The position numbers and the translations under genes are program-made. This document shows positions 1 through 40,001 of a stretch of DNA of 64,000 nt, piece by piece. This DNA is from an uncultured Acidobacteriota bacterium (GTDB lineage: Bacteria; Acidobacteriota; Thermoanaerobaculia; UBA5066; Gp7-AA6), in assembly GCA_963764715.1 (NCBI GenBank), contig CAVXTP010000015.1, positions 161,693 through 225,692 of the forward strand. The letters are read 5' to 3'. Under the pieces are notes generated by a model that was given only the letters and a program-made list of their open reading frames with translations, ran no database searches and was not told the DNA's origin. The first letter of the stretch is position 1, and the number at the start of each line of letters is the position of its first letter.

Positions 1-824
1 GAGGCGCCCTTGCCCGGGGCCGCGTCGCAGCGCGGCGTCTCCTTCAACCAGGCCCGGGTCGGTTCTCCCTCGAGGTCGAGGCAGGGCTTGAGGCCCGCGA
101 TCTCGCGGCGGACCGGCACGCCGAGGATCTGGAGATCGCCGCCGTAGTTGCACTGCACCAGGACCCCAACGGTGTAGGACGCGGAGCCCTTCTCCGCCAC
201 GACCCGCGACGAGGTGCCGATCCCGCCCTTGAACCCGTTGCAGATCATTCCCGTCCCGCCGCCAACCGCTCCCTCCGTCACGCGCCCGCCCTTCGCGGCG
301 TCGAGCGCCGCCCAGACGTGCTCGGGCTTGACGTACTGTCCGTTGGCGTCCGACAGCGAGTCGAACGTCTCCGAAACGATCGGGTACGTGAACTCGAACT
401 GCCGCCCCCGCGCGATCTCCCACTGGATCGCGGCGTCGCGCACGGTGCCCACGCTGTGCGTTCCCGTCAGCAGGATCGGGCCCTCGAGGAAACCCGACTC
501 CCTGATCCAGTTGACGCCGGTCATGTCGCCGTTGCCGTTCTGGTTGAAGGTCGCCGCCATCACGAAGTCCCAGTCGCCCTTCGGCCGCGTCAGGATCGCC
601 GTGACGCCCGTGCGCACCGGGCCCTGGCCGAGCACGACCCGGCCCTCGCCCGAGATCAGCGTCACGTGCGCGACGGCGACACCCTCGACGTCCGTGATCG
701 CGTTCTCCGGGCCCGTCTTTCCGGGAAACGGGATGCCGAGCTCCCGTCCGCGCGGCTTCGTCTGGGCCGCGAGGACTCCGGGAAGAAGCCACGCGAGCAG
801 GATCGCCCGGATGAAAACTTTCAT
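1..824 (-). CDS. DmpA/peptidase S58 (P1) family aminopeptidase, runs off the window end
   Basis: Hand translation MKVFIRAILLAW...RELGIPFPGKTGPENAITDVEGVAVAH...GPVRTGVTAI; GGAGGAG RBS. Confidence 0.85.
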   Translation of the reverse strand, partial: MKVFIRAILLAWLLPGVLAAQTKPRGRELGIPFPGKTGPENAITDVEGVAVAHVTLISGEGRVVLGQGPVRTGVTAILTRPKGDWDFVMAATFNQNGNGDMTGVNWIRESGFLEGPILLTGTHSVGTVRDAAIQWEIARGRQFEFTYPIVSETFDSLSDANGQYVKPEHVWAALDAAKGGRVTEGAVGGGTGMICNGFKGGIGTSSRVVAEKGSASYTVGVLVQCNYGGDLQILGVPVRREIAGLKPCLDLEGEPTRAWLKETPRCDAAPGKGA

Positions 825-1186
825 GACTCCTCCCCGGGGTCCGACCCGAATCGCAGCACGTTGCCGTCGGGGTCCTCGATCCGCATCTCGAGCGCCCACG
901 GGAAGCGCGTCGGCTCGAGCCGCACGACGGCGCCCCGCGCCGCGTACTCCCGGTGCAGGGCGCGCACGTCCTCGACGCCCACCCAGACCCACGCGCCGCC
1001 GCGTCCCTGGCCCGCCCGGCAGAGATAGATCCCGCGCCCGTCCCGTCCCACGAAGCGGAAGTCGTCGTTTCCCCAGGGCGCCTTCTCGAAGCCGAGCACC
1101 TCGACGTAGTAGGCGACGCTCCTCGCCATGTCCTCGACCCGGAGGATGGGATCGATGCACTCGAAGCGCTGCGGCCCCGAGGTCAT
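821..1186 (-). CDS. VOC/glyoxalase/bleomycin-resistance family protein
   Basis: PILRVEDMARSVAYY...EDPDGNVLRF; ATGA overlaps at both ends. Confidence 0.85.
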   Translation of the reverse strand: MTSGPQRFECIDPILRVEDMARSVAYYVEVLGFEKAPWGNDDFRFVGRDGRGIYLCRAGQGRGGAWVWVGVEDVRALHREYAARGAVVRLEPTRFPWALEMRIEDPDGNVLRFGSDPGEES

Positions 1187-1884
1187 CGCGGCCGGCGCTC
1201 CGGCTTCGGCAGAAACCGGAGGATCGCCGCGAGCGCCTTCGGTCCCTCCGGCGTGCCGAAGAGAAACTGGGCGTGAGCCGAGCCATCGAGGATCAGGAGC
1301 TCTTTGGGCTCCGGCGCCGCATCGTAGGACGCCCGGATGCCGGGCAGCCGCTTCTCGCCGCTTCCGTCGGCGTCGTCCCGGGCGACGATGAAGAGCTTCC
1401 GGCACGCGATCTTCTTCGGATCGCGGCCGGCCGACGCGCCGAGGAGCACGAGCGCGTCGATCTCCCCGGGCTTCGCCGCCGCCGCGGCGTTGCCGGCGGC
1501 GAACCCGCCAATGCTCGCGCCCACGACGGAGACCTTCGCCGCGCCCTGGCGCCGCAGGTACCGCACGGCCGCGAGCACGTCGTTCTGGAGGGGCGCGCTC
1601 ATCGGGTCGGCCTGGCCGGGACCGCGGGACCGGCCGTAGCCCCGGAAATCGAGGGCGAGCACGCGGTATCCGGCCCTGGCGAGAGCGCGCGCCTCCCCGG
1701 CCCAGCTCTCCTTGTCGAACCGCCCGCCGTGGGCGAGGACCACCGCGTCGCCTCCCGAGCCGTAGACGTCGGCGTAAACGCGCCCGCCGTCCTGCGTCTG
1801 GAACGAGACCGTCTCCTGCGCGCCGAGCGCCGCGGACAGGGCCGAGGCCAGGATCGCCGCGGCCGCGGCCCTCCGGCGGCGCAC
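1183..1884 (-). CDS. Secreted alpha/beta hydrolase
   Basis: Signal peptide; LAHGG, DFRGYGRS and GASIGG nucleophile motif. Confidence 0.85.
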   Translation of the reverse strand: MRRRRAAAAAILASALSAALGAQETVSFQTQDGGRVYADVYGSGGDAVVLAHGGRFDKESWAGEARALARAGYRVLALDFRGYGRSRGPGQADPMSAPLQNDVLAAVRYLRRQGAAKVSVVGASIGGFAAGNAAAAAKPGEIDALVLLGASAGRDPKKIACRKLFIVARDDADGSGEKRLPGIRASYDAAPEPKELLILDGSAHAQFLFGTPEGPKALAAILRFLPKPERRPR

Positions 1885-1888
1885 GTCC

Positions 1889-2134
1889 CTACTCCTCCGC
1901 GCTCTCCGCGAACAGGCGCTCGAGCGACGACTCGTCTTCGAGTCCCGCCTCCGCCCCCGGGCTGCTGTAGACCTCGACCTCCACGTGCCCGTCCGCGAAG
2001 AACTCGACCTCCCAGTGCTCGCCCGGCACCATGACCTCGACCATCACGGCTTCCCGGACGCTGTCGAGACGGAACGCCAGATTGGCGGCCCGAAGCCTCT
2101 CGATGAAGTCGATCACTTTCTGCAGCGGGTTCAT
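1889..2134 (-). CDS. Small acidic hypothetical protein
   Basis: 81-aa ORF with GAGGGGAG RBS; VPGEHWEVEFFADG. Confidence 0.7.
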   Translation of the reverse strand: MNPLQKVIDFIERLRAANLAFRLDSVREAVMVEVMVPGEHWEVEFFADGHVEVEVYSSPGAEAGLEDESSLERLFAESAEE

Positions 2135-2199
2135 CGTCGATCACTCCCCTCGTTTTGTCCCTACCCCGGCGGGAGAACGATAGCGCGAGACGGCCCGGT

Positions 2200-2895
2200 T
2201 CAGGTCAGCGGCAGCGCTCGAAACCATGTCGCGACGGGCACCCAGCGCGGCCCCTGGACCACCGTGAACCAGGCCACGTGCGCCAGCGGGAACGCCAGGG
2301 CGCCCGCGAGGAACCGGCGGCGCAGGCGCGGCGCGAGGGGCGGCCGCCAGAGGAGAGCGAGGAGGATCAGGTCCGTCGATCCGAAGGTGACGGCCTGGTA
2401 GAGGAGAGGACGCGGCAGGGGCGGGCCGTAATAGAAGAGCAGCCGGCCGACGACCGGGTCGATCAGCACGAGGCCGGTCCCGATCATGAACCGGGCGTGC
2501 AGGGCCTGCGTCTTCCGAAAGGCCATGGCGAGCGCGTAGGAGAGCCCGAAGAGGACGACGGCCGACAGCGGCAGGAAGAGGTTCGCCGCTTCCGAAGCGA
2601 ACCTCGCCTCGTCCATGGCGCGAAAGCGCGCGTGGGCGAGCAGCGTCGAGGCGACGAGAACGAGGGGCGCGATCCCGTAGGACAGCGCGCCGATCCTCCG
2701 GTGGAGGTCCCGGCGCCCGGCGCGGATGAGAAACGGCTGAACGATCAGCAGCCCGCACCACGCCGTCGCGACGATCGCGTGGAAATGGGTGTACGGATCG
2801 ATGGACTCGTTCAGGCGCCCGAGATATCGCGGCCAGAATGCGAAGCCGGCCGCGACGAGAAGCCCGGCGAACCAGTAGCCGCTAGACCGGAACAT
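2200..2895 (-). CDS. Multi-pass membrane protein, related to 29939..30697
   Basis: HFHAIVATAW...LIVQP...LHRRIG...HARFM. Confidence 0.75.
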   Translation of the reverse strand: MFRSSGYWFAGLLVAAGFAFWPRYLGRLNESIDPYTHFHAIVATAWCGLLIVQPFLIRAGRRDLHRRIGALSYGIAPLVLVASTLLAHARFRAMDEARFASEAANLFLPLSAVVLFGLSYALAMAFRKTQALHARFMIGTGLVLIDPVVGRLLFYYGPPLPRPLLYQAVTFGSTDLILLALLWRPPLAPRLRRRFLAGALAFPLAHVAWFTVVQGPRWVPVATWFRALPLT

Positions 2896-4351
2896 CGGCG
2901 TTCCAGAGAGGCGGCCGGCGCAGGTGCCAGTCGGTCGCGCGCTCGTAAGCCCGGGCGAGCGCGAGAATGCGCGGCTCCGAAAGCGGCGGGCCGCCGACGA
3001 GCAGTCCGATCGGCAGCCCCGAGCGCGAGAATCCGCACGGCAGCGAGATCGCCGGCAGGCCTCCCAGGCTGAACCCGAACGTGCACGCGGCCTGGGCGAA
3101 GGGATCGATCGCTTCGCGAATGGGGATCGGCAGCCCCGGCATCGTGGGGAGGACGACGAGGTCGACCTCGGTGAACGCTTCGTGGATCGATGCGCGGTGC
3201 CGCTCGAGCGCGCGCCGCAGGTCCGCGGCCGCAGCCTCGGACACGCCTCCCGAGGACGCATCCTTGCGGGTCCGCGGGTCGTAGCCCCCGGACGCCTCTT
3301 CCAGAAGCGGCCGGTGAAACGCGTACGACTCCGCGTCGATCAGGGCTCCGAGGTCCGGCATCGGCAGCTCCGACTCGCGAATCTGGCCGACGAGCGGCCG
3401 GAGAACCTCGATCGCCGCGGCGACCGCGGCCGCGACCTCCGGCTCGACGTGCGCGTCGCAGACGTCGCCGGTCGTGTGGAGCACGCCGACGCGCAGGCCC
3501 GCGATCGCCGGAAGAGCCTCCGGGTCGCACTGCGCCGCGACCGGATGATTCGTCATCGCCCGGAACATCCGCGCCGCGTCCTCGACCGTGCGGCACAACG
3601 GCCCGACGTGGTCGAAGGAGGGTGATACCGGGACGGTGCCCCGCGCGCTGACGACCCCGAAGGTGGGCTTGAGGCCGACGATCCCGCAGCAGGACGCGGG
3701 AATGCGAATCGAGCCTCCCGTGTCCGTGCCGACCGACCCGAAGCAGAGACCCGCCGCGACGGCGGCGCCGGAGCCGCCCGAAGAGCCGCCGGCCACGCGC
3801 TCGAGGTCCCACGGGTTGTGCACGGGACCGTAGTGGCTGATCGCCGACGTCGTGCCCATCGCGAACTCGTGCATGTTGAGCTTGCCGAGGAACACGGCGC
3901 CCGCTTCCTTCAGCCGGAGGATCACCTCCGCGTCCTCGGCCGGAATGCGATCCGCGAAGACCGCGCTCGCGGCCGTCGTGCGCACGCCGGCCGTGTCGAC
4001 GTTGTCCTTGACGGCGATCGGAATGCCGTGCAGCGGGCCGCGCCAGCGCCCCCGGCCCACCTCCTCCTCGGCCCGGCGCGCCTCGGCGAGCGCCGACTCC
4101 CGCGTCACCGTGATGAAGGCGTCGAGCTTCGGGTCGAGCCTCTCGATCCGGTCGAGGCAGGCGCGCGTCAGCTCGACCGGGGAGACCGCGCGCTCCCGCA
4201 CCGCGCGCGCCGCCCCGGTGAGATCGAGCAGGGCCGGATCGCCCGCCGGGCCGCGCTTCCGGGAGCAGCCGAGCGTCCCGAGCAGGACGGCGCCCGAGCC
4301 CGCCGCGAGCCCGGCGATCACGTTCCGCCGGGAGAGAACCCGCTCGGTTAC
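2882..4351 (-). CDS. Amidase-signature family enzyme with Tat-like signal; start codon uncertain
   Basis: SRRNVI twin-arginine; GIPIAVKD, GGSSGGS, GTDTGGSIRIPAS; expected start reads GTA. Confidence 0.85.
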   Translation of the reverse strand, partial: VTERVLSRRNVIAGLAAGSGAVLLGTLGCSRKRGPAGDPALLDLTGAARAVRERAVSPVELTRACLDRIERLDPKLDAFITVTRESALAEARRAEEEVGRGRWRGPLHGIPIAVKDNVDTAGVRTTAASAVFADRIPAEDAEVILRLKEAGAVFLGKLNMHEFAMGTTSAISHYGPVHNPWDLERVAGGSSGGSGAAVAAGLCFGSVGTDTGGSIRIPASCCGIVGLKPTFGVVSARGTVPVSPSFDHVGPLCRTVEDAARMFRAMTNHPVAAQCDPEALPAIAGLRVGVLHTTGDVCDAHVEPEVAAAVAAAIEVLRPLVGQIRESELPMPDLGALIDAESYAFHRPLLEEASGGYDPRTRKDASSGGVSEAAAADLRRALERHRASIHEAFTEVDLVVLPTMPGLPIPIREAIDPFAQAACTFGFSLGGLPAISLPCGFSRSGLPIGLLVGGPPLSEPRILALARAYERATDWHLRRPPLWNADVPV

Positions 4352-4782
4352 GGCGTCCCCGCGCCCGGAAGGGAAACGGCCCACTCCTTCAGAAGCGCCG
4401 CGTCCTCGGCCGACAGCGCGGCCTCCCGGTGCATGGCCACGTAGAACCACGGAGGCATCTCGCCTTTCGCGACCTGCTCCTGGATCTCCTTCGCCTTCCG
4501 CGCCCGGCGCTTCTCCGCGTACAGGTTCCACGTCGAGAAGTTCAGCTCCTTGCGCCCTTCGCGCACGTCGCGCGCGACGAGCCAAGAGACCGGCGCCACC
4601 CGGCTGTACCAGGGCCAGACGCTCTCGTTGGAGTGACAGTCGTAGCAGGCGCGCCGCAGGACCGCGCGCACGTTCTCCGGCGCCGGGAACTCCGTCTCGA
4701 CCGGCGGGCTCGCCCGATCGACGGGAACGAGCTGGATGGCGACGATCGCGACGACGAGGCCGAGCAACCCCTTCTTCAGCAC
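4348..4782 (-). CDS. Haem-binding (cytochrome c-type) domain protein
   Basis: CYDCHSN...WPWY...GEMPP. Confidence 0.85.
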   Translation of the reverse strand: MLKKGLLGLVVAIVAIQLVPVDRASPPVETEFPAPENVRAVLRRACYDCHSNESVWPWYSRVAPVSWLVARDVREGRKELNFSTWNLYAEKRRARKAKEIQEQVAKGEMPPWFYVAMHREAALSAEDAALLKEWAVSLPGAGTP

Positions 4783-4997
4783 GTCCTTCCGAAACGTTCC
4801 CTTCACGAGCCGCCTCCCGCTTCCGTTCGCTTCGCCGGGCCGGCCTTTCGGCGTGGCGCGGCGAGCGTCAACGCCGCATACGCTACCAGCCCCCGGAGGA
4901 GGGCGCTCGGCGCGGTCGCGAGCCGGAGCCTTTCTCCTTCCGCAGGCAGAGTTTACGGTCACGGCGCACCCCCGCTCGAAGGCGGGCGATTTGAGGC

Positions 4998-5027
4998 TTG
5001 ACGCGCGCCTCTTCCGGCCTGTATATT
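4998..5027 (+). promoter_or_regulatory. Putative sigma70 promoter for a leaderless ArsR gene
   Basis: TTGACG-18bp-TATATT shortly before ATG 5039. Confidence 0.5.
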
Positions 5028-5038
5028 ACCGTTCTGTT

Positions 5039-5410
5039 ATGGAACTAAATAGTTATGTAAGCCCGACTCCCGGATCGCTCGACGCCACGTTCGCGGCGCT
5101 GGCGGACCCGACCCGCCGCGCGATCCTCGCCCGGCTCGCGGAGGGCGAGGCGTCCGTGACGGAGCTCGCCGCGCCCTTCCGAATGAGCCAGCCCGCGATC
5201 TCGAAGCACCTCAAGGTGCTCGAGCGCGCCGGCCTCGTCTCGACCGGACGCGACGCGCAGCGCCGCCCCCGGCGGCTCGAGGCGCAGCCCCTCGCCGCGG
5301 CCACGCAGTGGATCGAGGCTCTCGAGGGCAGCTTCCAGCGCCTCGATGCCCTGCTCGACGAGCTCAAAGCCACCCGGCCGAAACGCGATCCCAACGAAGG
5401 CAAGAAATAG
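5039..5410 (+). CDS. ArsR/SmtB family regulator
   Basis: FAALADPTRRAIL...SQPAISKHLKVLERAGLV. Confidence 0.9.
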   Translation: MELNSYVSPTPGSLDATFAALADPTRRAILARLAEGEASVTELAAPFRMSQPAISKHLKVLERAGLVSTGRDAQRRPRRLEAQPLAAATQWIEALEGSFQRLDALLDELKATRPKRDPNEGKK

Positions 5411-5422
5411 AGGAGCGTGCCC

Positions 5423-5920
5423 ATGACGAACTTCGGAAAACTGAAAGTCGACACGCCGAGCGACCGCGAGATCCGCATCACGCGCGTCTTCGAAGCTCCG
5501 CGTCCCCTCGTCTTCGACTGCTGGACGAAGCCCGAGCTTCTCCGGCGCTGGCTGACGGGGCCGCCCGGGTGGTCCTTCGTCGTCTGCGAGGTCGACCTGC
5601 GCGTCGGCGGCGCCTACCGCTTCGTCTGGCGCGGCCCGGACGGGACCGAGATGGGGATGGGCGGCGTCCATCGCGAGGTCGTGCCCCCGGAGCGGATCGT
5701 CAACACGCAGCTCTTCGACCAGGACTGGACGGGAGGCGAGGCCGTCGGGACCCTCCTCCTCTCCGAGAAGGACGGGCGCACCACCGCGACGAACACCATC
5801 CTCTATTCCTCGAAGGCCGCGCGGGACGGCGCCCTGAAGTCCGGCATGGAGCAGGGCATGGAGGCCGGCTACGCGAGGCTCGACGAGCTGCTGGCGCAGA
5901 AACGCTCCGCGAAGAACTGA
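5423..5920 (+). CDS. SRPBCC/AHSA1 domain protein
   Basis: ITRVFEAPRPLVFDCWTKPELL...DLRVGG. Confidence 0.9.
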   Translation: MTNFGKLKVDTPSDREIRITRVFEAPRPLVFDCWTKPELLRRWLTGPPGWSFVVCEVDLRVGGAYRFVWRGPDGTEMGMGGVHREVVPPERIVNTQLFDQDWTGGEAVGTLLLSEKDGRTTATNTILYSSKAARDGALKSGMEQGMEAGYARLDELLAQKRSAKN

Positions 5921-5956
5921 GCTCTTTCACAACCTTTTTTTCGAGGAGAACCGACC

Positions 5957-6412
5957 GTGCAGAAGATCACCCCGTTCCTGTGGTTCGACGGAAAGGCCGA
6001 GGAGGCCGTGAATTTCTACGTCTCCGTCTTCAAGAACTCGAAGATCGTGAGCGTCAGCCGCGGGCCCGACGGCGGCGTCTTTCACATCACCTTCCGCCTC
6101 GAAGGCCAGGACTTCCAGGCCTTGAACGGCGGCCCCAGGTTCAAGTTCACCGAAGCCCTCTCGCTCTACGTCGACTGCGCCGATCAGGCCGAAGTCGACG
6201 CGCTCTGGGAGAAGCTCTCGTCGGGAGGCGAGATCCAGATGTGCGGCTGGCTCAAGGACCGGTTCGGCCTCTCCTGGCAGATCATTCCCTCGGCGCTCGG
6301 CAGGCTGATGGGGGACAAGGACCCCGCAAAGGCCGGGCGCGTCATGCAGGCCATGCTCCAGATGAAGAAGCTCGACGTCGCGAAGCTCCAGCAGGCGTAC
6401 GACGGACGATGA
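5957..6412 (+). CDS. PhnB-like VOC family protein
   Basis: QKITPFLWF...ALNGGP...[14 protein letters not shown]. Confidence 0.9.
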
Positions 6413-7278
6413 GCCTCTCGGCCAGGCGCGGCGGCCGGGCCGCACCGGAGGCGTCCGTCGACGAGCGCGTCCGCTCGTGCCTCCGGTGGCTCGAGCGGCA
6501 CGCCACCCGGAAGACCCGCGAGGCGATGGCCCGCTACGGCCTTCCCTCGGACCACGCCCTCGGGGTGTCGATGAAGGACATCCAGGCGCTCGCGAAAGAA
6601 GTCGGCCGCGACCACGCGCTCGCCGCCGGCCTCTGGAAGACGGGCGTCTACGAGGCCCGCATGCTGACGTCGTTCGTCGACGAGCCGGCGCGCGTCACCG
6701 CGGCGCAGATGGACCGCTGGTGCCGCGCCTTCGACAACTGGGGCATCTGCGACACGCTCTGCTTCAACCTCTTCGACCGCACGCCGCACGCGTGGTCCCG
6801 CGTCGCGGCCTGGAGCGGGAAGCCCGCAGAGTTCGTCAAGCGCGCCGCCTATGCCCTGCTCTGGAGCCTCAGCGTCCACGACAAGACGGCGGGCGACGCG
6901 CGGTTCCTCGACGGCCTCGCCCGCATCGAGCGGGCCGCGGTCGACGAGCGCCACTTCGTCTCCAGGGCCGTGAACATGGCCCTCCGCGCGATCGGCAAGC
7001 GCAACCCCGCCCTCCATGCCGCCGCGGTCGAGTCGGCCCGCCGCCTCGCCGGCTCCCCGAACGCGTCCGCGCGATGGGTCGGCAAGGACGCGCTGCGGGA
7101 GCTCAGCGGGCCCTCCGTGATGCGGCGGATCGAGGCGAGCCGGGCCAAGCCGGCGCGCGAGCTTCAGTTCGCCCTCACGGGGCGGGCGACATCGCCAGCA
7201 CCAGCGGCGCGTCCTGGCCGTCGCCGGAAACCTCGAGCGCCATCTCGACGGTCTCGTATCCGGCGCGGCACGTCTTGA
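6409..7278 (+). CDS. DNA alkylation repair (AlkD-like) protein
   Basis: [10 protein letters not shown]...FDNWGICD...[13 protein letters not shown]. Confidence 0.85.
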
Positions 7279-7594
7279 GGAGGTAGCCTCCCGACGGAAC
7301 GCCGCCGACGACGAAGCGGCCGGTCCCGTCGCTCGTCGCCTGGTAGACCGACGTGGCCGCGTCCTCCGCGATCAGGACGACCGCCACGCCCGGAAGCGAA
7401 CGCTCGGACGAATCGACCGTGCGGCCGGCCACGACCCTCACGGCGGTTCCGGGCAGGCGCACCGAGACGCGGCCCCGGCAGAGGAGTGCGGCGTTGCGCG
7501 CGCTGCCCGTCAGTGCGCGCGAGGACGACGCGCAGCCCCCCGCCGCGAGGCCGACCGCGAGAAAGCAGGCCGCCCGGCGGCCGGCGCGCCGCAC
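7175..7594 (-). CDS. Lipoprotein with carboxypeptidase-regulatory-like domain
   Basis: Lipobox-like AGGC; LPGVAV...TSDGTGRF...GY. Confidence 0.6.
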   Translation of the reverse strand: MRRAGRRAACFLAVGLAAGGCASSSRALTGSARNAALLCRGRVSVRLPGTAVRVVAGRTVDSSERSLPGVAVVLIAEDAATSVYQATSDGTGRFVVGGVPSGGYLLKTCRAGYETVEMALEVSGDGQDAPLVLAMSPAP

Positions 7595-7626
7595 CCTGGC
7601 GTCCGGACGGAGCGGCCGCGGCCGGG

Positions 7627-8058
7627 TCAGGGCCGGACGTGCGCGATCCACTGGCGGAGGACCTTCCGGAAGGCGGCGCGCCGGAACTCGATCTCCTTCC
7701 CGTCGCGGAACCGGACCGAGGCGCGGTCCGGCCCCAGCCACTCGAGCAGCGAGTCGGGGTCCGCGATCGCGGCGCGCGGGCTCGCTCCGTCCCGTTTCTT
7801 CGCGCCGAGGTGGAGGATGAGCTGCACTCCCTCCGGCGCCCGCAGATGGAACGTCGCGAAGTACTCCGAGGTGCGAAAGCTCGGCGCGTTCCACTTGATC
7901 CCCTCGGAAATCTTCGGGTCGGCGTCGAGGATGATCTTCCGGACGGCCCGGATCTCCGCCACCCGCGGGTGATCGAGAGCCGCGAGAAAGGCCTCGACCT
8001 CTCCGTCCCCGGCCGACCCTTTCGCGCCGGACCGGCTTCTCGTGCTCTTCCCCCTCAT
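7627..8058 (-). CDS. DUF1801 family protein
   Basis: EGIKWNAPSF. Confidence 0.8.
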   Translation of the reverse strand: MRGKSTRSRSGAKGSAGDGEVEAFLAALDHPRVAEIRAVRKIILDADPKISEGIKWNAPSFRTSEYFATFHLRAPEGVQLILHLGAKKRDGASPRAAIADPDSLLEWLGPDRASVRFRDGKEIEFRRAAFRKVLRQWIAHVRP

Positions 8059-8071
8059 GGCGCCTCCCGCC

Positions 8072-8674: not shown

Positions 8675-8785
8675 GCGCTCCTCCTCCCGACCCGCGCACC
8701 GGCTCTCCGAACGTGATCCAGAGGCCGTTGAGGTTCCGGATGACGAAGTCGTGACGCCTGGTCATTGCGAGCTCTCCCTTTCCGA

Positions 8786-9202: not shown

Positions 9203-9209
9203 TCTCGGG

Positions 9210-10858: not shown

Positions 10859-10871
10859 GGGTGACCGGAGG

Positions 10872-29927: not shown

Positions 29928-29938
29928 GACGCGCGCCC

Positions 29939-31129: not shown

Positions 31130-31224
31130 GGCTCCGCCTCGTGGCGCTCAAAACACATGAGGCACCATCCGTTTCGTGATCTCCGCGTCAGCACCGGACC
31201 CGCGGGCCTGCGCGAGACCGGCCT

Positions 31225-31617: not shown

Positions 31618-31641
31618 GAGACCTCCTTTGCCTTTCGGCAG

Positions 31642-32052: not shown

Positions 32053-32057
32053 GGGCC

Positions 32058-32579
32058 TCACTTTCCCGCGGCCGCAGGCGGTGGCGCCGTGCTGTTCCAG
32101 ATTTCCCGCGCGAACTGCCAGCGCCCGTCGGGTCGCCGCCTCCACACCTGCATGTAGTGGCCGCGATCCACGGCCGGATCGCCGCCGCCCGCCGCGGGCT
32201 CGAGGCCCCATTCGTAGCTCCCGACTTCGACGGCCCAGCCCGCCCCGACGAAGACCTCGCGGTCCCCGAGGACCAGCGACGACGTCCGGAACTGCGACAG
32301 GAACGCGGCATACCACTCGCGCATCGCCGCCTTGCCGCGGATGGCGGCTTCGCCGGGCGGCATCATCACGACGTCGTCCGCGACGAACGAGAACAGCCTG
32401 TCGGCATCGTTCGTCCTCAGCGCCTGGTGAAACTTCTCGGTCGTGGCCTCGACCTCGGCGCGCCCGGGTTTCCCGTCGCCGCCGGCGGCCGACGGCTCCG
32501 GACCGGCACAGCTCAGGAGGGCCACGAGGCACGAGGCGACGGCGAGCATCCGGGCGGCCTCGAGGGTTCTCACGTACAT
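32058..32579 (-). CDS. DUF4440/YybH NTF2-like lipoprotein
   Basis: LLSC lipobox; MMPPG...VWRRRPDGRW. Confidence 0.78.
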   Translation of the reverse strand: MYVRTLEAARMLAVASCLVALLSCAGPEPSAAGGDGKPGRAEVEATTEKFHQALRTNDADRLFSFVADDVVMMPPGEAAIRGKAAMREWYAAFLSQFRTSSLVLGDREVFVGAGWAVEVGSYEWGLEPAAGGGDPAVDRGHYMQVWRRRPDGRWQFAREIWNSTAPPPAAAGK

Positions 32580-32878
32580 GTCACGGCGATTCGCTTCCCG
32601 AAGCGTGACCATACCCTCGCTACCCGCCGCACACGAGCACGATCTTGCCCGTCACGCCTCCCTCGCCCAGAAGCTCGTGCGCCTTTCTCGCCTCGGCCAA
32701 AGGGAATCGCCGCGCGATGAGCGGCTTGATCTTCTGCTGCTGGAGGAGGTCGAACAGGGCCGTCAGGAAGCCGCGGGCGATGCCCGCAGCACTCCGGCCG
32801 CAGCCACGAGGATGCAGAGCGTCCGGCCGAACCGCCTGCCGATTTCACCCGACATGCTCTTCCCCCTTTCTTTCGAGT

Positions 32879-33631
32879 TCATTCTGCTTCGTTCTTCCCG
32901 GTCGCTGCACGGAGGAAGACGGTCTGCCCGACCGCCAGCCGGCCGATGCGGGTGACGGTCCCGTAGATTCCGGCGTTGTTCCCGTTCGCGCGAACGACCG
33001 CCTTCAGCATTTCCGGCGCGGAGCTGGCCGAGTCGGGATCGAGGTTCACCATCGAGCAGCGAACGTCGCGCATCGTGACGGCGACGGCCGGGGCTTCCGC
33101 CCCCTCGCCGAACGAGAGCACGCCGCCCAGCCACTCGTCCTCCTGGAAGGCCCCCGGCCGCGCGAGGCGAACGACGACGTTCGGACGAAATCGCCGCACG
33201 TCCGGGCTTCGCCCGGCGAGCCTCGAGATCTCGCGCACCGTGTCCACCGCGATCACGGAGATGCAGGCGTCGTCGAAGATGCCGTGTCTCAACTGCATCA
33301 TCTGCACCGGAGAGCCGTGCCGGCGTCCGACCTCCGCGGCCAGGCCCTCCCCGAAGACGGGCATCGCCTCGCCCTCCGGTGTCCGAACGTGCGTCGGAAG
33401 GTCTCCCGGAGCACCGTCTTCACGGCGCTGCGGGGTGAACAGGAGCAGCTCGGGAAGCCGGCTCGCCGACAGCCAGGGGAACCCGCTGTGGTCAGCCATC
33501 CGCCGGAAAGCGAGGCGCCTGTCCCCATCGACGCCGTGCCAGCCCAGCTCGGCAACCTCGAGCCGTTCGCCGCCCATGGACTTCACGGGATACCGGAAGA
33601 TCGCCTCGACCTGTCCGATTTCCATGAGCAT
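32879..33631 (-). CDS. MOSC domain protein
   Basis: RYPVKS, GDR, RRFRPN, RC. Confidence 0.9.
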   Translation of the reverse strand: MLMEIGQVEAIFRYPVKSMGGERLEVAELGWHGVDGDRRLAFRRMADHSGFPWLSASRLPELLLFTPQRREDGAPGDLPTHVRTPEGEAMPVFGEGLAAEVGRRHGSPVQMMQLRHGIFDDACISVIAVDTVREISRLAGRSPDVRRFRPNVVVRLARPGAFQEDEWLGGVLSFGEGAEAPAVAVTMRDVRCSMVNLDPDSASSAPEMLKAVVRANGNNAGIYGTVTRIGRLAVGQTVFLRAATGKNEAE

Positions 33632-33643
33632 GCGGGTTCGAGG

Positions 33644-34309
33644 CTACTTGAGCTCGAACTCGACGAGGATGCCCTTCTCGGGCCCGCGGTTCGTGAAGGA
33701 GTGCGTGACGGCGGTGTCGACCCAGTGCAGGTCGCCCGCCTTGACCGCGTGCTCCATGGACGCGCCGTCGGGCGAGGTCATGCCGAGATCGACGGCGGTA
33801 GCGGCGACGAGCAGGTACGGCCGCGCGTGGGTATGCGGCGCCGTGGCCGCGCCTGGCGCGAGGTCGTAGCGGTACACACGCATCTTCTCGTTCTCGGCCG
33901 CGGGTGCCGAGATCGCCGGTACGACGGGGCCCGGCGGGCGCCCCAGAATCTGGACGTCGATCACGTCGAACACGGTGGTCCCGAGGTTGTGAACGCGATG
34001 CGTGAGCGGTTTGGCCTCGTTGTTTCGAGCGGAGACGAGACCGGGCTGAACAGATTCGTCCGGACCGAGGGGCTGGCCCGGGCTGTCCGCCGCGACGGTG
34101 GCCGTGCTCAACCGGACCGCGCCATCATCGTGGGAATGGACGTGCATGAGCGATTGCTGGCCGGGTTCGAGCGTCACCCGAAATGCCTGGACGTACTCGT
34201 TCTTGAACACCGTCCTGTGATGCGGCTCTTCCTCCACGGGCACGGCGCCATCCTGGGAAGGCGCCATGGCGGCGAGGAATGCAAGCAGCCCGACGAGACG
34301 GAGAGTCAT
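33644..34309 (-). CDS. Secreted double-cupin protein
   Basis: Two cupin repeats (HVHSH; HTH). Confidence 0.75.
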   Translation of the reverse strand: MTLRLVGLLAFLAAMAPSQDGAVPVEEEPHHRTVFKNEYVQAFRVTLEPGQQSLMHVHSHDDGAVRLSTATVAADSPGQPLGPDESVQPGLVSARNNEAKPLTHRVHNLGTTVFDVIDVQILGRPPGPVVPAISAPAAENEKMRVYRYDLAPGAATAPHTHARPYLLVAATAVDLGMTSPDGASMEHAVKAGDLHWVDTAVTHSFTNRGPEKGILVEFELK

Positions 34310-34376
34310 GCGTGTTCCTCACGACGGCGAGGGAGCCGCGCGGAATCATAGACCATGCATCCCGACGGATCGCGCG

Positions 34377-34787
34377 TCAAAACAACGCCCGGAGGAACGC
34401 GGCCGCTTCATCCGAGATGCCGACGATCTTGTTCGTCGCCTGCCGATAGAACTTGAAATTGAGCTCGGTCTCCGGCCGGCCGTCGTCCCGTTGGACGAAC
34501 GGTTTGAGCTCGCTCCGTCCCAGGCGCCGTTTCGCGAGCCCGGTGCGCCGGATGGTGATGCTCACGCGCGGCGTCTGCCGGGCGATCCCGCGTTTCCTGG
34601 CGACCGCCCGGGCCGAGGTGACGACGCCGCGCGCGACGAGACCCGGCCCGCCCTCGTTCTCGCTCGCGAAGACGAAGATCGCGTCGCCCCGGGCGACGTT
34701 TTCGCCGCCATACATCGTCTTCTGCGCCGGGAACGCGAACGTCCGCGCCCGGGGATCGCTGACCTCGGCTTTGATCGCGAAGGGCAT
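34377..34787 (-). CDS. Hypothetical protein
   Basis: QKTMYGG...ASENEGG...FYRQATNK. Confidence 0.7.
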   Translation of the reverse strand: MPFAIKAEVSDPRARTFAFPAQKTMYGGENVARGDAIFVFASENEGGPGLVARGVVTSARAVARKRGIARQTPRVSITIRRTGLAKRRLGRSELKPFVQRDDGRPETELNFKFYRQATNKIVGISDEAAAFLRALF

Positions 34788-34804
34788 GCTTCTCGTCTCC
34801 CGCC

Positions 34805-35233
34805 TCAGAGCGGATAAGTCACGACGACCGCGGAGTCGTCCTCCACCTTTCCCCCGGTGCGCGCGTACAGCCCTCGCGCCGGCGCGTTGCCGCGACTCGT
34901 CAGGACGAAGGCCTCGAACATTCCTTCGGCTCGAGCGAGCGCGACGATCTCGCGAAGCAGCGCCGTCCCCACGCCCCGGCGGCGCCACTCCTCCGCGACG
35001 CCGACCTCGTAGACGAACATCTGGCAGGCTTCGCGATCGGCCCGCTCCGGGCGATAGGCCGTCAGAAAGCCCACGATCCGCCCGCCGGCCTCCGCCACCA
35101 GAATGTAGTTTGCGGGGTTGCGCAGAAAGGCCCCGAGCGAGCCGACCGAGCGCGACGCGTTCTTGAAGGTGCGCACCGCGTCCTCGGCCTTTTCCCCGTC
35201 GTCCGGCCCGAGCCTCCTGATCCGCGTCGTCAT
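34805..35233 (-). CDS. GNAT acetyltransferase
   Basis: VAEEWRRRGVG...NAPARGLY. Confidence 0.85.
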   Translation of the reverse strand: MTTRIRRLGPDDGEKAEDAVRTFKNASRSVGSLGAFLRNPANYILVAEAGGRIVGFLTAYRPERADREACQMFVYEVGVAEEWRRRGVGTALLREIVALARAEGMFEAFVLTSRGNAPARGLYARTGGKVEDDSAVVVTYPL

Positions 35234-35243
35234 CGGCACCCGC

Positions 35244-35981
35244 TCAGTCACAGTGAAAATGAAACCGGTGTCCGGCGAGGTCTTCGAGCGTGAACTGCGT
35301 CAGCCCCCAGGGCTTTTTCTCCAGCGGCTCCGCGATCCTCGCACCCGAAGATCGGAGCTCCGCGTACGCGGCGTCGATGTCTCCGGCGAATACCCAGTGA
35401 ACCGCGGGTTCGAAAGTTCCCTGTCGTCGCCGGAAGAAGATGACCGCATTTCCCCGTGAGACGGCGCCGATCTCCTTCCCCGGATAGAGCCATCCGATCT
35501 CGAAGCCGAGAACGTCGCGATAGTACTGCTGTGCCTGTTCGACGTCGGCGACCGGCAGCTCCGGTACCGCCTCCCCGATCGGAGTCGAGCCCCGGGCGAG
35601 TGCATCGCGCGCCGGAGCTTCGGAGAAGCAGAGGATGTAGCCGTCCGGGTCCTCGACCTGGAAATCCAGCGTTCCCCACGGACGCTCCCCGAGCGGTTGC
35701 GTGATCGGAGCGCCGCGCCCGACGAGCTCGTCATGCAGCGCACGGACCCCGGATATGTCGAGGAAGGCGTCGAGGTGCTCGCCCGACTTGCGGTGGGCCC
35801 GCTCGGCGTCGAGCCTGGGGGCGCACTTGAGATGGATCGGAGCGCCGTCTCGCGACACGCTCGCGTAGAAATCGCCGTAGACGAAGTCCGTCGTGAAGCC
35901 GAGGCGATCTTCGTAGAATGCGATCGCGTCACGGAGGTTGCGGACCAGAAACTGGGGAGCCGCTCGCCTGATCGTCGGCAT
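35244..35981 (-). CDS. Tandem double VOC protein
   Basis: Two VOC modules, each ending PWG...D-x-x-G. Confidence 0.8.
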   Translation of the reverse strand: MPTIRRAAPQFLVRNLRDAIAFYEDRLGFTTDFVYGDFYASVSRDGAPIHLKCAPRLDAERAHRKSGEHLDAFLDISGVRALHDELVGRGAPITQPLGERPWGTLDFQVEDPDGYILCFSEAPARDALARGSTPIGEAVPELPVADVEQAQQYYRDVLGFEIGWLYPGKEIGAVSRGNAVIFFRRRQGTFEPAVHWVFAGDIDAAYAELRSSGARIAEPLEKKPWGLTQFTLEDLAGHRFHFHCD

Positions 35982-36102
35982 GTCGTAGACCTCCGAGGAA
36001 GCTGGCCTGGACGCCCATCCTATGGCCGCCATGCCGGCCGCTGGAATCCGGGGCGCGGCGTGAGAAGATCGGGTCACCCTCTCCCTGCGAACGGAGGAAG
36101 CC

Positions 36103-36420
36103 TTGAAGAACACCCTGCGGATCGCCGCCTGGCCGCTCGTCCTCGTGGCGCTGCTTCTGTTCTCGACGGAGCGAGCGGTCGGATCGCCGCCGCCGAAGGC
36201 CGACGCGCCCCGGGCCGACTGCGCCTTCAGCAACCCCGGATACTCGGGCTGGTGCCGGCAGACGGTCCCGATCCCGGCGGGCTCGACGCCGAGGCAGGCG
36301 TGCGAGGCCGTGCTGAGCTGCCTGAACGGCAACGCATGCCCGTCCAACTACTGCAACGCCCAGAACATCCGCAGCGGCTGGAGACTGGAAGAGGCAAAGC
36401 CTTCGACGCCGCCGCGCTGA
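36103..36420 (+). CDS. Small secreted protein with six cysteines
   Basis: GGAGG RBS, signal peptide, six Cys. Confidence 0.7.
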   Translation: MKNTLRIAAWPLVLVALLLFSTERAVGSPPPKADAPRADCAFSNPGYSGWCRQTVPIPAGSTPRQACEAVLSCLNGNACPSNYCNAQNIRSGWRLEEAKPSTPPR

Positions 36421-36449
36421 CGCGTTCCTGACTCCCCGGTGCTCGCCGG

Positions 36450-36875
36450 CTACGGAAGCCAGCCGGGCAACGCCGCCGCCTGCTTCACCCACTTCGCCAT
36501 CCGGGCCTCGTCGAGATCGTCCTCGTGGATGTCGATCCAGCGCGCTTCCTTGCTCGTGCCTCCGGGTGGAACGGGCCGCAGCGACGTGCCTCGGAAGAAG
36601 GTCGTCTTGACGTAGCGGGTGAAGACGTGGAACGACAGGAACCAGCCCTGGCCCTCGATGCCGTAAAACGGCGAATTCCACTTCACGGCCTTGCGCACGT
36701 CGGGCACGTGGCGAACGACGAGGGCGTCGAGGCGCTTCCCGATGTCGTGCTTCCAGCCCGGCATCGCGGCGATGTACGCCTTCACCGGGGCGTCGCCGTC
36801 CGCCTTCGCGATGCGCGGGTTGCCGCCCGAGAGCAGGACGGCGGCCTTCCCGCCCTTTCGAGCTTTCTTCGGCAT
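36450..36875 (-). CDS. DUF1801 family protein
   Basis: KAVKWNSPFYG. Confidence 0.85.
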   Translation of the reverse strand: MPKKARKGGKAAVLLSGGNPRIAKADGDAPVKAYIAAMPGWKHDIGKRLDALVVRHVPDVRKAVKWNSPFYGIEGQGWFLSFHVFTRYVKTTFFRGTSLRPVPPGGTSKEARWIDIHEDDLDEARMAKWVKQAAALPGWLP

Positions 36876-36955
36876 CAGGGCCTCCTCCGGGCCTGTCAGA
36901 TTGGCGGACCACGGCCCGTCAGTCAACCGGCGAAATGCCGCCTTCTCGTCAGAAA

Positions 36956-36992
36956 ATATGCCTTGACAGGCATATGACCCAATAGGTATATA
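36956..36992 (+). promoter_or_regulatory. Sigma70 promoter with palindromic operator
   Basis: TTGACA...TATATA; inverted repeat ATATGCCT-tgac-AGGCATAT over the -35 box. Confidence 0.65.
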
Positions 36993-37000
36993 TACACGCC

Positions 37001-37333
37001 ATGGAATCTTCGTTCGCGATCATCGCGGAGCCGAACCGCCGGACCATCCTCGGCCTGCTCGCGTCGTCGGAGCGCTCCGTCGGCGAAATCGAGCGCCGGC
37101 TGCGGATGCCGCAGACCTCCGTGTCCAAGCACCTCCGCGTGCTGCGCGAGGCCGGATTCGTGGAGGCGCGCGTCGAGGCCCAGCGGCGCGTCTACCGGCT
37201 CCGGCCCGAGCCGCTCATGGAGGTCGACGCCTGGCTGGAGCCTTTCCGGCGCTTCTGGACGGCCCACGTCGATGCGCTCGAACGCCATCTCGATCGGATG
37301 GAACGGACATCCAGGAAAGGAAAGAAGCGATGA
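37001..37333 (+). CDS. ArsR family regulator
   Basis: AEPNRRTIL...VSKHLRVLREAG. Confidence 0.9.
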   Translation: MESSFAIIAEPNRRTILGLLASSERSVGEIERRLRMPQTSVSKHLRVLREAGFVEARVEAQRRVYRLRPEPLMEVDAWLEPFRRFWTAHVDALERHLDRMERTSRKGKKR

Positions 37334-37899
37334 GCAACCGTAAGGAGTACGCGCCCGGCCCCGCGGCCGGGGCCGAGGTCCGGAAAGATGGAGAGAAGTG
37401 GACGCTCGTTCTCGTCCGCGACCTCCGCCACCCTCCCGCAACGGTCTGGAAGGCGCTCACGGACCCCGAGGAGCTCCGCGAATGGGCCCCGTTCGACTCC
37501 GACCGGAGCCTCGGCGCCGTCGGCACCGCGATGCTCTCGACGGTGGGAGCGCCGACGCCGCAGGTGACCGAGACGCAGGTCAAGCGGGCCGACGCTCCCA
37601 GGTTGCTCGAGTTCAACTGGGGTGGACAGGACATCCGCTGGGAGCTGGAGCCGCACGGAGGCGGCGGCACGCGCCTCACGCTCTGGCACAACATCGACCG
37701 ACGCTTCATTTCGATGGGCGCCGCGGGCTGGCACATCTGCTTCGACGTGCTGGATCGGCTTCTCGCCGGCGAGCCCGTCGGACGCATCGTCGGCGCCGAG
37801 GCCATGAAGTTCGGCGGCTGGCAGCGATTGAACGCCGAGTACGCGAAGCAGTTCGGCGTCGAGACCCCCGGCTGGCCGCAAAGCGCCCCGCGGGCTTGA
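37330..37899 (+). CDS. SRPBCC family protein
   Basis: HPPATVWKALTDP...AAGWH. Confidence 0.85.
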   Translation: MSNRKEYAPGPAAGAEVRKDGEKWTLVLVRDLRHPPATVWKALTDPEELREWAPFDSDRSLGAVGTAMLSTVGAPTPQVTETQVKRADAPRLLEFNWGGQDIRWELEPHGGGGTRLTLWHNIDRRFISMGAAGWHICFDVLDRLLAGEPVGRIVGAEAMKFGGWQRLNAEYAKQFGVETPGWPQSAPRA

Positions 37900-37912
37900 A
37901 GGAGGGACGGAC

Positions 37913-38302
37913 ATGAGCATGCCCCGCTTCAGGGGAATCGCCATCGGCTTCTGGATCTTCACCGCGCTCTTCTGCCTGCAGATAGGCTTCACCGCCTATG
38001 CGCAGCTGCGCCTGCCGCAGGTGGCGGAGATGTTCACCCACCTCGGCTTCCCCGCCTACTTCCGGGTGGAGCTCTCGTGGGCCAAGCTCCTCGGCGTGGC
38101 GCTGCTGCTCGCGCCCGTGCCGGCGCGGCTCAAGGAGTGGGCCTACGCCGGCTTCGCCATCACCCTCGGCTCGGCGCTCATCGCCCACTTCGCGGTGGGC
38201 GATGGCCCGGCGGTGTGGGGCTGGGCGGCGGCCACCGGCGTGCTCTGGGGGCTCTCGTACTTCTTCTGGCGCCGCCTGCAGGCCACGCCGGCGATCGCCT
38301 GA
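37913..38302 (+). CDS. DoxX-like membrane protein
   Basis: HLGFP...LKEWAYAG. Confidence 0.85.
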   Translation: MSMPRFRGIAIGFWIFTALFCLQIGFTAYAQLRLPQVAEMFTHLGFPAYFRVELSWAKLLGVALLLAPVPARLKEWAYAGFAITLGSALIAHFAVGDGPAVWGWAAATGVLWGLSYFFWRRLQATPAIA

Positions 38303-38338
38303 CGGCGCGCTGAGCACCGCCTTTCCGACGGAGACGAC

Positions 38339-38860
38339 ATGAACCCTTCCGAGCGCATCGACAAGGCGATCGCCGATCACGCCGACTGGCGGGGTCAAAC
38401 GCTGGCGGAAGTCCGTCGCATCATCCGCGCGACCGTCCCCGACGTGACGGAAGACTGGAAGTGGATGGGCACGCCCACGTGGAGCCACGACGGCATCCTC
38501 TGCATCTGCAACGTCTTCAAGGACATGGTGAAGGTGACCTTCATCAACGGCGCGAAGATCGAGGACATGGGCGGCGTCTTCAATGCCGAGCTCGCCGGCA
38601 ACAGGTGGCGCGCCATCAAGATCTTCCAGGGCGACAGGGTGAACGCGAGCGGCCTGAAGAAGGCTCTCCTCGCCGCCGTGGAGTTCAACGCCGCCAGCGG
38701 AAAGGGCAAAGCCAGATCAACTGCCGCGGCGGGCGGCGCACGAACCGGGAAGCCGGCCGCAGCCAAGACGAAGCCGGCCGGGACCGCAGGGAAAACGAAG
38801 GGCGCCAGGATCGCGGCGAAGGCAAAGCGTCCGACCCCCCGCGGCGGCAGATCGCGTTAG
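38339..38860 (+). CDS. DUF1801 family protein
   Basis: EDWKWMGTPTW...VKVTF. Confidence 0.85.
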   Translation: MNPSERIDKAIADHADWRGQTLAEVRRIIRATVPDVTEDWKWMGTPTWSHDGILCICNVFKDMVKVTFINGAKIEDMGGVFNAELAGNRWRAIKIFQGDRVNASGLKKALLAAVEFNAASGKGKARSTAAAGGARTGKPAAAKTKPAGTAGKTKGARIAAKAKRPTPRGGRSR

Positions 38861-38916
38861 GCTGGTCTCCCCCGCTCGGCGGTTACGGCTGTCAGGCCGC
38901 GCGCGGTAACGCGGTG

Positions 38917-39315
38917 CTAGGCCAGCTCATAGCTCAGGGTGAAGGGATGCTCCATGCCGTGCCCAACCGCGGAGCTGCCATCGCCCAGGAGGCCCAGCAG
39001 TTGTCCCGTCGCGGAGCCGGGGATGACGGAGTAGGACTCCTTCGCCTGCCCGCTCTCGAATAGGCCCGTGCGTTGGAGCACGAAAGTGCCGGTCCTGCCG
39101 CCGACTCGCCCGACGACCCGCTCGAGGCCCACGAAGGTGGCCGAGCCGTCGCTGCGATACATCATCAGGTACTCGACCTCGCCATCTCCCTCGATATCGC
39201 CTGTGTAGGTCTTGGTCACCCTGGCCCGAGTGAGCCTTGGCTGGTCCGGGCCCTCACTGTAGGGCTTCTCATCCCAGCTCTTGATGGCGAACCGGGCGTT
39301 CGCGGTCTTTTTCAT
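38917..39315 (-). CDS. DUF3224 family protein
   Basis: WDEKPY...VIPGSATG. Confidence 0.85.
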   Translation of the reverse strand: MKKTANARFAIKSWDEKPYSEGPDQPRLTRARVTKTYTGDIEGDGEVEYLMMYRSDGSATFVGLERVVGRVGGRTGTFVLQRTGLFESGQAKESYSVIPGSATGQLLGLLGDGSSAVGHGMEHPFTLSYELA

Positions 39316-39383
39316 GAGCGACCTCCTCCGGCTGATGAAGAGTGGCGAGTCCACTGCACCCGCCGGTCAGGGCGCGGCATCAT

Positions 39384-40001
39384 CTACCTCTCTCCGATCG
39401 GTATCGTCATCGTCTGAGACGCAACGGACTCCTCCCGGCAACCGTAGCGCTGATCGCACGCCGCGGGATCGATGACCTTCACCCATCCGGTGACTTTCGC
39501 CGTGCCGGCGCGCAGACTACTGAGCGGAACCGTCTTTGACCACACGATCTTCTGACCCGGCAGAAGCGTCAATTTTTCATCGCAGCCCGGGTGCTCAGCG
39601 CGAACGATGTGACCCGCATCGTGGCCGCCCGCAATCACGCTGACGCCCCACGACGGCCCAAAGCACCCTTCGAATACCGCCGGCCCGTTGTTCGTGAGAG
39701 TGAACCTGGCCGTCACCGACCGGTCGCCCACCGCCAGGGCGTTTCCCAATGACATCGCGAGGCTCAGGCTCTGGCCAATGCTCGATCTCGGACGCGCCGC
39801 TGCTGGTGCCGCGTGGACCGCCTGGGGCGCGGAGGTACACCGAACAGCCACGATCGCGACGAGCACGAGGCCGCCGAAGCACTTCCGCGACTGTCCGCTG
39901 CCGAACGGTCGGCGCGTCAGCGGCGAGCCCGGAGGCGCAGCCGACGAGCGAGGCCGCCGCGCCCGCGTCTCAGGCCGCACCGGCTTCGCCCCTTCGACCA
40001 T
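39384..40001 (-). CDS. Putative exported protein, in frame through a degenerate attC
   Basis: ORF includes attC peptide ...SPLTRRPFG then a hydrophobic segment; no clear own start. Confidence 0.55.
   Translation of the reverse strand: MVEGAKPVRPETRARRPRSSAAPPGSPLTRRPFGSGQSRKCFGGLVLVAIVAVRCTSAPQAVHAAPAAARPRSSIGQSLSLAMSLGNALAVGDRSVTARFTLTNNGPAVFEGCFGPSWGVSVIAGGHDAGHIVRAEHPGCDEKLTLLPGQKIVWSKTVPLSSLRAGTAKVTGWVKVIDPAACDQRYGCREESVASQTMTIPIGER
39900..39975 (-). repeat. attC, highly degenerate
   Basis: gccgaac...gtcagcggcgag...ctcaggc. Confidence 0.7.

Follow-up and report, generated by a model that had tools for sequence, protein, structure and literature searches.

A probable attC-free tail of fixed cassette genes at the distal end of a sedentary chromosomal integron in Acidobacteriota

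The final fate of gene cassettes, and the lasting supply of genes by chromosomal integrons to their hosts, is the question addressed here. For clusters of attC sites lacking an integrase (CALIN), very degenerate attC sites have been proposed as an intermediate stage on the way from integron capture to permanent fixation (Cury et al. 2016, PMC4889954). In the fused cassettes of mobile integrons (for example, blaOXA-10/aadA1 and blaGES-1/aacA4), partial or total loss of attC gives rise to operon-like units that are possibly translationally coupled and can be moved by the outer attC (PMC8876359). Domestication of cassettes via replication-slippage deletion of the folded attC has been suggested for the SALIN/attG sites (10.1101/2022.09.11.507474), and the Vibrio cholerae superintegron has been described as genetically and functionally isolated from the genome (PMC11551772). 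Here we analyse a 64,000-nucleotide (nt) stretch of the genome of an uncultured Acidobacteriota bacterium (hereinafter the window, G000:C15:161693-225692, where G, C, L and f numbers denote genomes, contigs, loci and taxonomic families, respectively) and conclude that its left 39 kb is probably the distal end of a sedentary chromosomal integron with a co-oriented integrase gene, a tail of fixed genes that no longer carry attC. In this bacterium and its relatives, captured genes appear to move gradually to the array end, where their recombination sites are lost stepwise and they become ordinary chromosomal genes.

The locus shares with the CALIN the degenerate attC as a proposed route to stabilisation, with the fused cassettes the joining of genes by attC loss, with the Vibrio cholerae superintegron its sedentary nature, long array and toxin-antitoxin cassettes, and with the inverted-integrase group (PMC4889954) the co-orientation of the integrase gene intI and the cassettes. 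It does not itself match the definition of a CALIN because the tail contains no cluster of attC sites and the array has an intI. Furthermore, the CALIN proposal was a hypothesis on clusters cut off from the integrase, whereas here the series from intact through decayed to lost sites lies in one locus joined to the integron and recurs in relatives. The fused cassettes are pairs of genes in clinical elements, in contrast to the tens of genes on at least 20-40 kb of chromosome, with codon usage drifting to that of the host, that are found here; the SALIN are single cassettes scattered over the genome, whereas the loss described here occurs in place, at the array end, and involves a specific 36-nt deletion seen 14 times. 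Unlike the isolated superintegron, the integron analysed here appears to hand genes over to the chromosome. Thus, fixation by attC loss is a known idea (for single cassettes, and as a hypothesis for the CALIN), but its scale, continuity with a resident integron and repetition across the order appear to be new; no paper on a graded attC-free tail behind a chromosomal integron was found in a search that covered few subscription papers.

The attC array, with a repeat of 76-81 nt, is located on the minus strand and extends from 39.3 kb to the right edge of the window, which coincides with the end of contig C15, and apparently continues at C17:599-8872; it comprises 31 sites in the window and 11 on C17, all on one strand and with R'' and R' cores. 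The integron integrase gene, which is read in the same direction as the cassettes, follows at C17:9516-10592. The match to TIGR02249 (C17:9551-10538) is split between two frames, indicating that intI is frameshifted in this assembly; the gene is intact in most relatives. About 70 nt behind the intI stop codon, G000 and its relatives share a conserved motif with a terminal GTTAGGC core, after which the first cassettes differ, so that the motif can be considered a putative attI. C15 and C17 do not overlap, the end of the former and the start of the latter both lying inside the array; the continuity of tail, array and intI is visible in relatives (G006, G013, G017, G019, G021 and G023). With intI and the putative attI probably lying beyond the right end of the window, its left part would be the array end farthest from the entry site. 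The position of the integron is fixed, with the same conserved gene block on the distal side in G006, G013, G017, G019, G021, G054, G055 and G059, and the locus is a sedentary chromosomal integron with intI co-oriented with the cassettes (the 'inverted integrase' type). In relatives, the order is IntI, intact attC, decayed attC and then attC-free small genes; IntI is present in 103 of 175 genomes of the order (a tally that includes the unpublished G095, which enters no other result). As a side observation, the integrases of this genus are extended at the C-terminus by a long acidic stretch (L007:9404-10592 on C17), with frames of about 390-410 amino acids (aa). In G060:C6 (L128-L129) and G003:C9 (L134-L135), merely 7-8 attC sites lie behind intI, followed by long low-GC DNA that contains neither recognised sites nor tail genes; these arrays may be interrupted or may carry another type of site.

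The direct evidence for former cassettes comes from homologues of the tail genes in 42 regions from other genomes, 40 of which yielded attC matches, with 822 sites of at least 40 bits in about 38 genomes. The first 11 regions were chosen by a match to tail DNA and others by the position of IntI; a homologue was required to show at least 55% identity and was considered to have its own attC if directly followed by a site of at least 40 bits. Such homologues exist for 10 of the 35 genes at 19-40 kb, compared to 8 of the 3627 genes elsewhere in the genome (7 of the 2053 genes up to 320 aa), and when homologues located within an array are also counted, the numbers become 19/35 and 11/3627. Eight of the 10 genes also qualify when only the regions picked by IntI position are used. 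In all 11 families that include both states, the G+C content at third codon positions (GC3) is lower in the attC-bearing copies than in the attC-free ones (Wilcoxon p 0.001), which establishes the direction of change, namely attC loss followed by drift to the host. All 46 tail genes common to G000 and G023, its closest relative, show pN<pS; hence the tail genes are maintained. We therefore consider it very likely that the 19-40 kb part consists of former cassettes fixed as an attC-free chromosomal tail. Its features are as follows (w numbers designate genes).

19200..39315, minus strand: young tail with attC-free genes for GNAT, DinB, methyltransferase, cupins, VOC, SnoaL, MOSC, an MsrP/MsrQ-like pair and unknowns
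39384..39881, minus strand: w39384, unknown gene (165 aa), boundary marker in many relatives, with attC states from 54 bits to absent
38917..39315, minus strand: w38917, DUF3224 gene, a cassette with attC in G023, G019 and G057
38860..38897, minus strand: candidate attC scar behind w38917, recognised by eye and MAFFT (position-specific scoring matrix, PSSM, p 0.046)
37001..38860, plus strand: inverted ArsR-SRPBCC-DoxX-DUF1801 operon; ArsR, SRPBCC and DoxX are enclosed by attC sites in G058 and G068 (82-97% identity)
31225..31617, minus strand: w31225, unknown gene (130 aa), with attC (41-66 bits) in 6 of 13 homologues and a weak scar at about 31183-31209
26335..26673, minus strand: w26335, cupin-like gene, a cassette with attC in G006, G021 and G057
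26294..26317, minus strand: candidate attC scar, a left-arm remnant 13 kb inside the tail (PSSM p 0.021 and alignment)
19200..19862, minus strand: GNAT gene, the deepest large tail gene with close attC-bearing relatives (G021, G058 and G068, 78-80% identity)

Aligned attC remnants, read from the alignments, are found behind w39384, w38917, w26335 and w31225, those of the latter two being short. At the w39384/w38917 junction, half an attC is present in G000, none in G023 and one of 54 bits in G001; the partial or complete loss of attC between intact genes that characterises fused cassettes is thus found here, but mobility via an outer attC is not, given that the covariance model detects no distal attC in G000. 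The 3' spacer of w38917 is the same as in G023, where it is followed by a 62-bit attC, of which G000 keeps only a mutated R'' box. In the inverted ArsR-SRPBCC operon, the part that lies between attC sites in both G058 and G068 is 37,001-38,302; blocks of several genes enclosed by attC sites also occur in G058. Most of the relatives with w39384 have this gene at or near the last attC, and its identities are near the level of core genes. When the DNA behind stop codons was scanned blindly with a PSSM of the attC left arm, the best match in the tail (15.5 bits behind w23216) was discarded because it lies inside the next gene.

The general properties of the left 39 kb bear out several points of a sequence-only reading of the window, which had noted many small genes mostly on the array strand: from the gene that crosses position 1 to 39881, there are 63 genes, 52 of these on the minus (cassette) strand, with a median protein length of 165 aa compared to 289 aa genome-wide. 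When 689 sliding windows of 40 kb from the genome were ranked for short co-oriented genes, the top ranks were taken by this locus and the C6 cluster of ribosomal-protein genes alone. The GC content is indeed higher than in the array (0.699 versus 0.631, with the border at 39.3 kb) and is at, not above, the host level (0.700). As that reading also proposed, VOC, cupin, RibD-C (its DHFR-like family) and ArsR-SRPBCC are shared with the array; GNAT was not found there, the carboxypeptidase-regulatory-like domain was detected with Pfam only just left of the window, and its assignment to w28897 lacks Pfam support. All six quoted 4-nt overlaps are present (ATGA/GTGA) but carry no weight alone, because such overlaps join 9 of the 52 co-directional neighbours in the tail (17%) compared to 23.6% of 2536 pairs genome-wide (2-6% in the array). 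Genes were called with our own hexamer script, which under-calls low-GC genes, rather than with Prodigal, and a few array open reading frames (ORFs) were mis-started in the Pfam set; with these calls, Pfam matches were obtained for 45 of the 62 tail proteins, 14 of the 20 ORFs at 40-50 kb and 7 of the 20 ORFs at 50-64 kb. A scan of 20-40 kb yielded 0 promoter-like sites and 14 terminator-like ones (8.5 +/- 3.3 in shuffled sequences), an uninformative outcome. None of the genes of 1-39.3 kb now has a functional attC behind it according to profile hidden Markov model (HMM), covariance model and PSSM scans, and no attC was detected left of 39,331 at E<0.3 with the HMM and covariance model (covariance model R1 was built on an RNAalifold structure that lacks the outer stem).

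Along the array, attC quality decays away from the entry end, and the following zones and sites can be delineated.

50069..63994, minus strand: intact cassette zone, 19 attC sites of 76-81 nt, mostly lineage-specific secreted or membrane proteins, GC3 0.68
39331..49278, minus strand: decay zone, 12 attC sites with mutated cores; widely shared cassettes for VOC, RibD-C, cupins, a ParE/RHH pair and inverted ArsR-SRPBCC, GC3 0.78
39331..39373, minus strand: last recognisable attC, a shortened half site (36-nt deletion form with more mutations; HMM 19 bits, covariance model E 0.1)
48296-49025, inverted: ArsR-SRPBCC cassette, found with 82-97% identity in 9 genomes from several genera and always in the outer half of the array (relative position 0.49-0.78)

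Both core boxes (RYYYAAC and GTTRRRY) are kept in all 19 sites of the intact zone but in only one of the 12 sites of the decay zone; homologues in relatives were found for 13 of the 17 tested decay-zone ORFs compared to 2 of the 14 tested intact-zone ORFs. The HMM score drops away from the entry end, with rho of -0.79 in G000; the 10 first-set relatives with sites all show the same trend (rho -0.48 to -0.82). When the core boxes alone are scored, the proximal third exceeds the distal third in 22 of 26 arrays (means of the thirds 0.77, 0.73 and 0.36), a test that covered arrays with more than 8 kb fetched beyond the last site; four arrays of family f3 have other core variants and low core-box scores throughout, and further arrays from nine genomes, three of these of family f2, lie outside the family-level sample. 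In genera with other attC types, the score trends are not interpretable with these HMMs. The attC contains two imperfect 7-nt direct repeats 36 nt apart, and 14 sites in 8 genomes lack exactly that stretch, as identified by eye from 84 matches to the junction pattern, the remaining matches being full attC sites matched on one arm; on the opposite strand, the pattern had 0 matches in 2.56 Mb. We infer that replication slippage causes this recurrent 36-nt internal deletion, which marks one route of attC loss.

The presence of the ArsR-SRPBCC cassette in arrays shows that inverted ArsR-SRPBCC operons, of which the tail contains two, can be cassettes. The arrays suggest that cassettes close to the putative attI turn over quickly and that the same useful ones are retained in parallel. 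Toxin-antitoxin cassettes were considered as the edge of the decay zone and rejected in this role: ParE/RHH homologues are located at 0.28-0.95 of other arrays, and the edge is not fixed. The intact zone also contains exact cassette duplicates (59424-59723 equals 63427-63726, and 60549-61050 equals 62951-63451), a sign of either recent integrase activity or assembly trouble.

Beyond the array, composition, spacing and gene order change gradually. Gradients were pooled from 11 genomes, with the last attC of at least 40 bits as the zero point and out to 40 kb; because these relatives are not independent, the gradients are descriptions rather than tests. Pooled GC3 is 0.72-0.74 in the array and then rises through 0.79, 0.84, 0.87 and 0.89 to 0.90, approaching the genomic value of 0.93, and the pooled codon adaptation increases from 0.37 to 0.69. 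From the array outward, the median gap shrinks (about 140, 78, 61, 34, 28 and 23 nt) and the fraction of 4-nt overlaps grows from 2-6% in the array to 25% at the far end; across the pooled set, 86-99% of the genes are on the cassette strand and the median length is 137-164 aa. In G000 alone, GC3 from right to left is 0.68, 0.78, 0.87, 0.91, 0.92 and 0.91, flat left of 30 kb. In the second family (f3; G028 and G038), attC scores likewise fall at the far end and the tail families follow directly.

Conservation of gene order, the check suggested by the sequence-only reading, declines toward the array: neighbour pairs are kept in 32/36, 24/25 and 42/57 cases left of the window and in 14/25, 12/16, 6/23 and 1/10 cases in successive parts of the tail (8/18, 1/5, 0/6 and 0/8 when G023 is left out). 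The opposite pattern, with homologues free of attC and gene order conserved independently of the integron, was not observed. Gene order in the young tail is shuffled among relatives, as the last two values show; the ranks of the shared tail genes nevertheless correlate positively (Kendall tau 0.29-0.94, compared to 0.82-1.0 left of the window). The synonymous distance to G023 grows from 0.24 to 0.61 toward the array, with the ratio of non-synonymous to synonymous distances (dN/dS) steady at 0.20-0.26 (0.22-0.26 in the young tail); the younger tail genes are either separate captures or still drifting.

A mechanism for the formation of such a tail can be proposed. Insertion at attI would shift older cassettes outward; most cassettes would be excised again, and useful ones would remain. 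The attC of retained cassettes would decay by point mutations in the core boxes and by the slippage deletion between the two 7-nt repeats. This decay would end excision, and neighbours would fuse into blocks that could still be moved as long as an outer attC survives. Further deletion would cut the spacers to operon size, and codon usage would drift to that of the host, the outcome being stress, detoxification and small-molecule enzymes arranged in order of age.

Left of 19 kb, the picture is thinner. The relevant features are listed here.

1..19100, minus strand: putative old tail, host-like small genes, GC3 0.91-0.92
9210..9374, minus strand: w9210 (54 aa), with an 81% identical homologue that is the first cassette beside IntI in G019 (attC of 77 bits)
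14362..14910, minus strand: w14362, DinB-family gene, in the tails of all three families, with a 59% identical homologue between two attC sites (locus L224)

The genes of this part encode VOC, three DinB proteins, RibD-C, OsmC, CN-hydrolase, a CysK-like protein, carbonic anhydrase, a P-type ATPase and an inverted ArsR-SRPBCC-VOC-AlkD operon. At the family level, there is a weak excess of small genes related to cassette families (4/26 compared to 55/2053, p 0.005), and a similar proportion (3/15, p 0.007) is found at -42 to -30 kb. The co-oriented run of small genes goes on for about 42 kb past position 1 (G000:C15:120100-161692), with GNAT, DinB, cupin, SnoaL, VOC and DUF3224; its gene order is conserved across the genus, it is interrupted by a sugar-use block, and it includes a beta-lactamase-family (PF00144) protein. 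This run is possibly an older layer of the tail.

Several results weigh against a cassette origin of the whole tail. A homologue with its own attC was found for just 1 of the 29 genes at 0-19 kb, and the count is also 1/29 when in-array homologues are included; by either measure, there are 0/20 among the genes just left of the window and 0/28 still further left. Behind distant relatives, attC was detected at 1 of 81 loci for w14362 and 0 of 69 for w10872, with a detector whose sensitivity is 173/206 within the genus and lower in some other families (false positives 9/1200). In relatives of the G006 type (for example, G019, G021, G054 and G059), w4348 lies inside the conserved block further left, at another fixed chromosomal place, which implies that some genes of 0-19 kb moved in by other means. 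For the tail in general, the covariance-model search for attC traces proposed in the sequence-only reading found nothing credible in 1-39.3 kb, the blind PSSM scan of the tail compared to 3501 other gene ends showed no excess (p 0.25 and 0.58), and no attC-bearing homologue was found for the large genes and operons (P-type ATPase, amidase and the MsrP/Q-like pair). The trees of five families have low resolution and give no dates for the losses; attC state requires 3-4 changes on them and is clustered no more strongly than in shuffles. Therefore, of the suggestion that the entire left 39 kb is a domesticated tail, the part that stands well, on homologues and gradients, is 19-40 kb. On balance, we favour the view that 0-19 kb is the older part of the same tail, some of its genes having probably arrived by other routes.

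These results could also be read to mean that former cassettes are confined to the vicinity of the array and that the rest is an accessory hotspot, fed by homologous recombination between relatives or by off-target IntI insertion and co-oriented by read-through transcription. The weakness of the direct evidence left of 19 kb, the other location of w4348 in relatives and the multi-gene sugar-use block further left all fit such a mixed origin, as does the ability of IntI to insert cassettes at short GWT sites reported in 10.1101/2022.09.11.507474. However, GC3, spacing, strand and the conservation of gene order all pass 19 kb without a step, true cassettes are known among the homologues of w9210 and w14362, and the small genes of 0-19 kb are still enriched for cassette families, so that we regard this explanation as unlikely.

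The occurrence of the same families in both states is, in itself, also compatible with the reverse direction, in which the tail would be the source of cassettes, with chromosomal genes gaining attC and entering the array; the origin of cassettes is, to our knowledge, unexplained. The evidence points the other way: the partial sites derive from the homogeneous proximal attC by mutation or deletion, the attC-bearing gene copies are foreign, with low GC3, whereas the tail copies are host-like (the opposite of what recent export from the host would produce), and the putative attI is at the other end, making this the least probable of the explanations. Very little probability is also left for a plain accessory island situated beside the integron by chance, the alternative already named in the sequence-only reading. 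The lack of attC in 39 kb and the variation of content among relatives agree with an island, but it is contradicted by the linkage to the array and by the attC-bearing homologues; moreover, the region has host-level GC and no atypical composition, tRNA or sharp edge, encodes no integrase or transposase among the proteins scanned, and follows the array at the same position in numerous genomes, which belong to at least two families.

The fixed-tail explanation, if extended to its full range, would make the integron a one-way conveyor into the core genome, with all of the about 110 co-oriented genes between 39 kb and roughly -42 kb (some 3% of the genes of the genome) being age-ordered former cassettes, the deepest layer older than the genus, and the same cassette families fixed in parallel in separate lineages. 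We put this extension forward only tentatively and consider it rather doubtful; if it is true, the position in the tail dates the capture and shows which cassette functions selection keeps. Because all stages lie side by side in many genomes, the rates of attC decay, spacer loss and codon drift become measurable on one axis. The cassette functions retained by selection include VOC, DinB, RibD-C, GNAT, cupin, SnoaL and ArsR-SRPBCC, in contrast to the short-lived unknown secreted proteins near attI, and tools that rely on attC undercount the contributions of integrons.

Two minor observations complete the description of this genome. A short tandem repeat with a 7-nt unit (GCAGTAA type) lies between genes at 28838-28896 of the window and also near -7200. 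A second, small set of decaying attC sites (G000:C22:42312-54097, L008) is located beside another tyrosine recombinase (C22:40972-41430).

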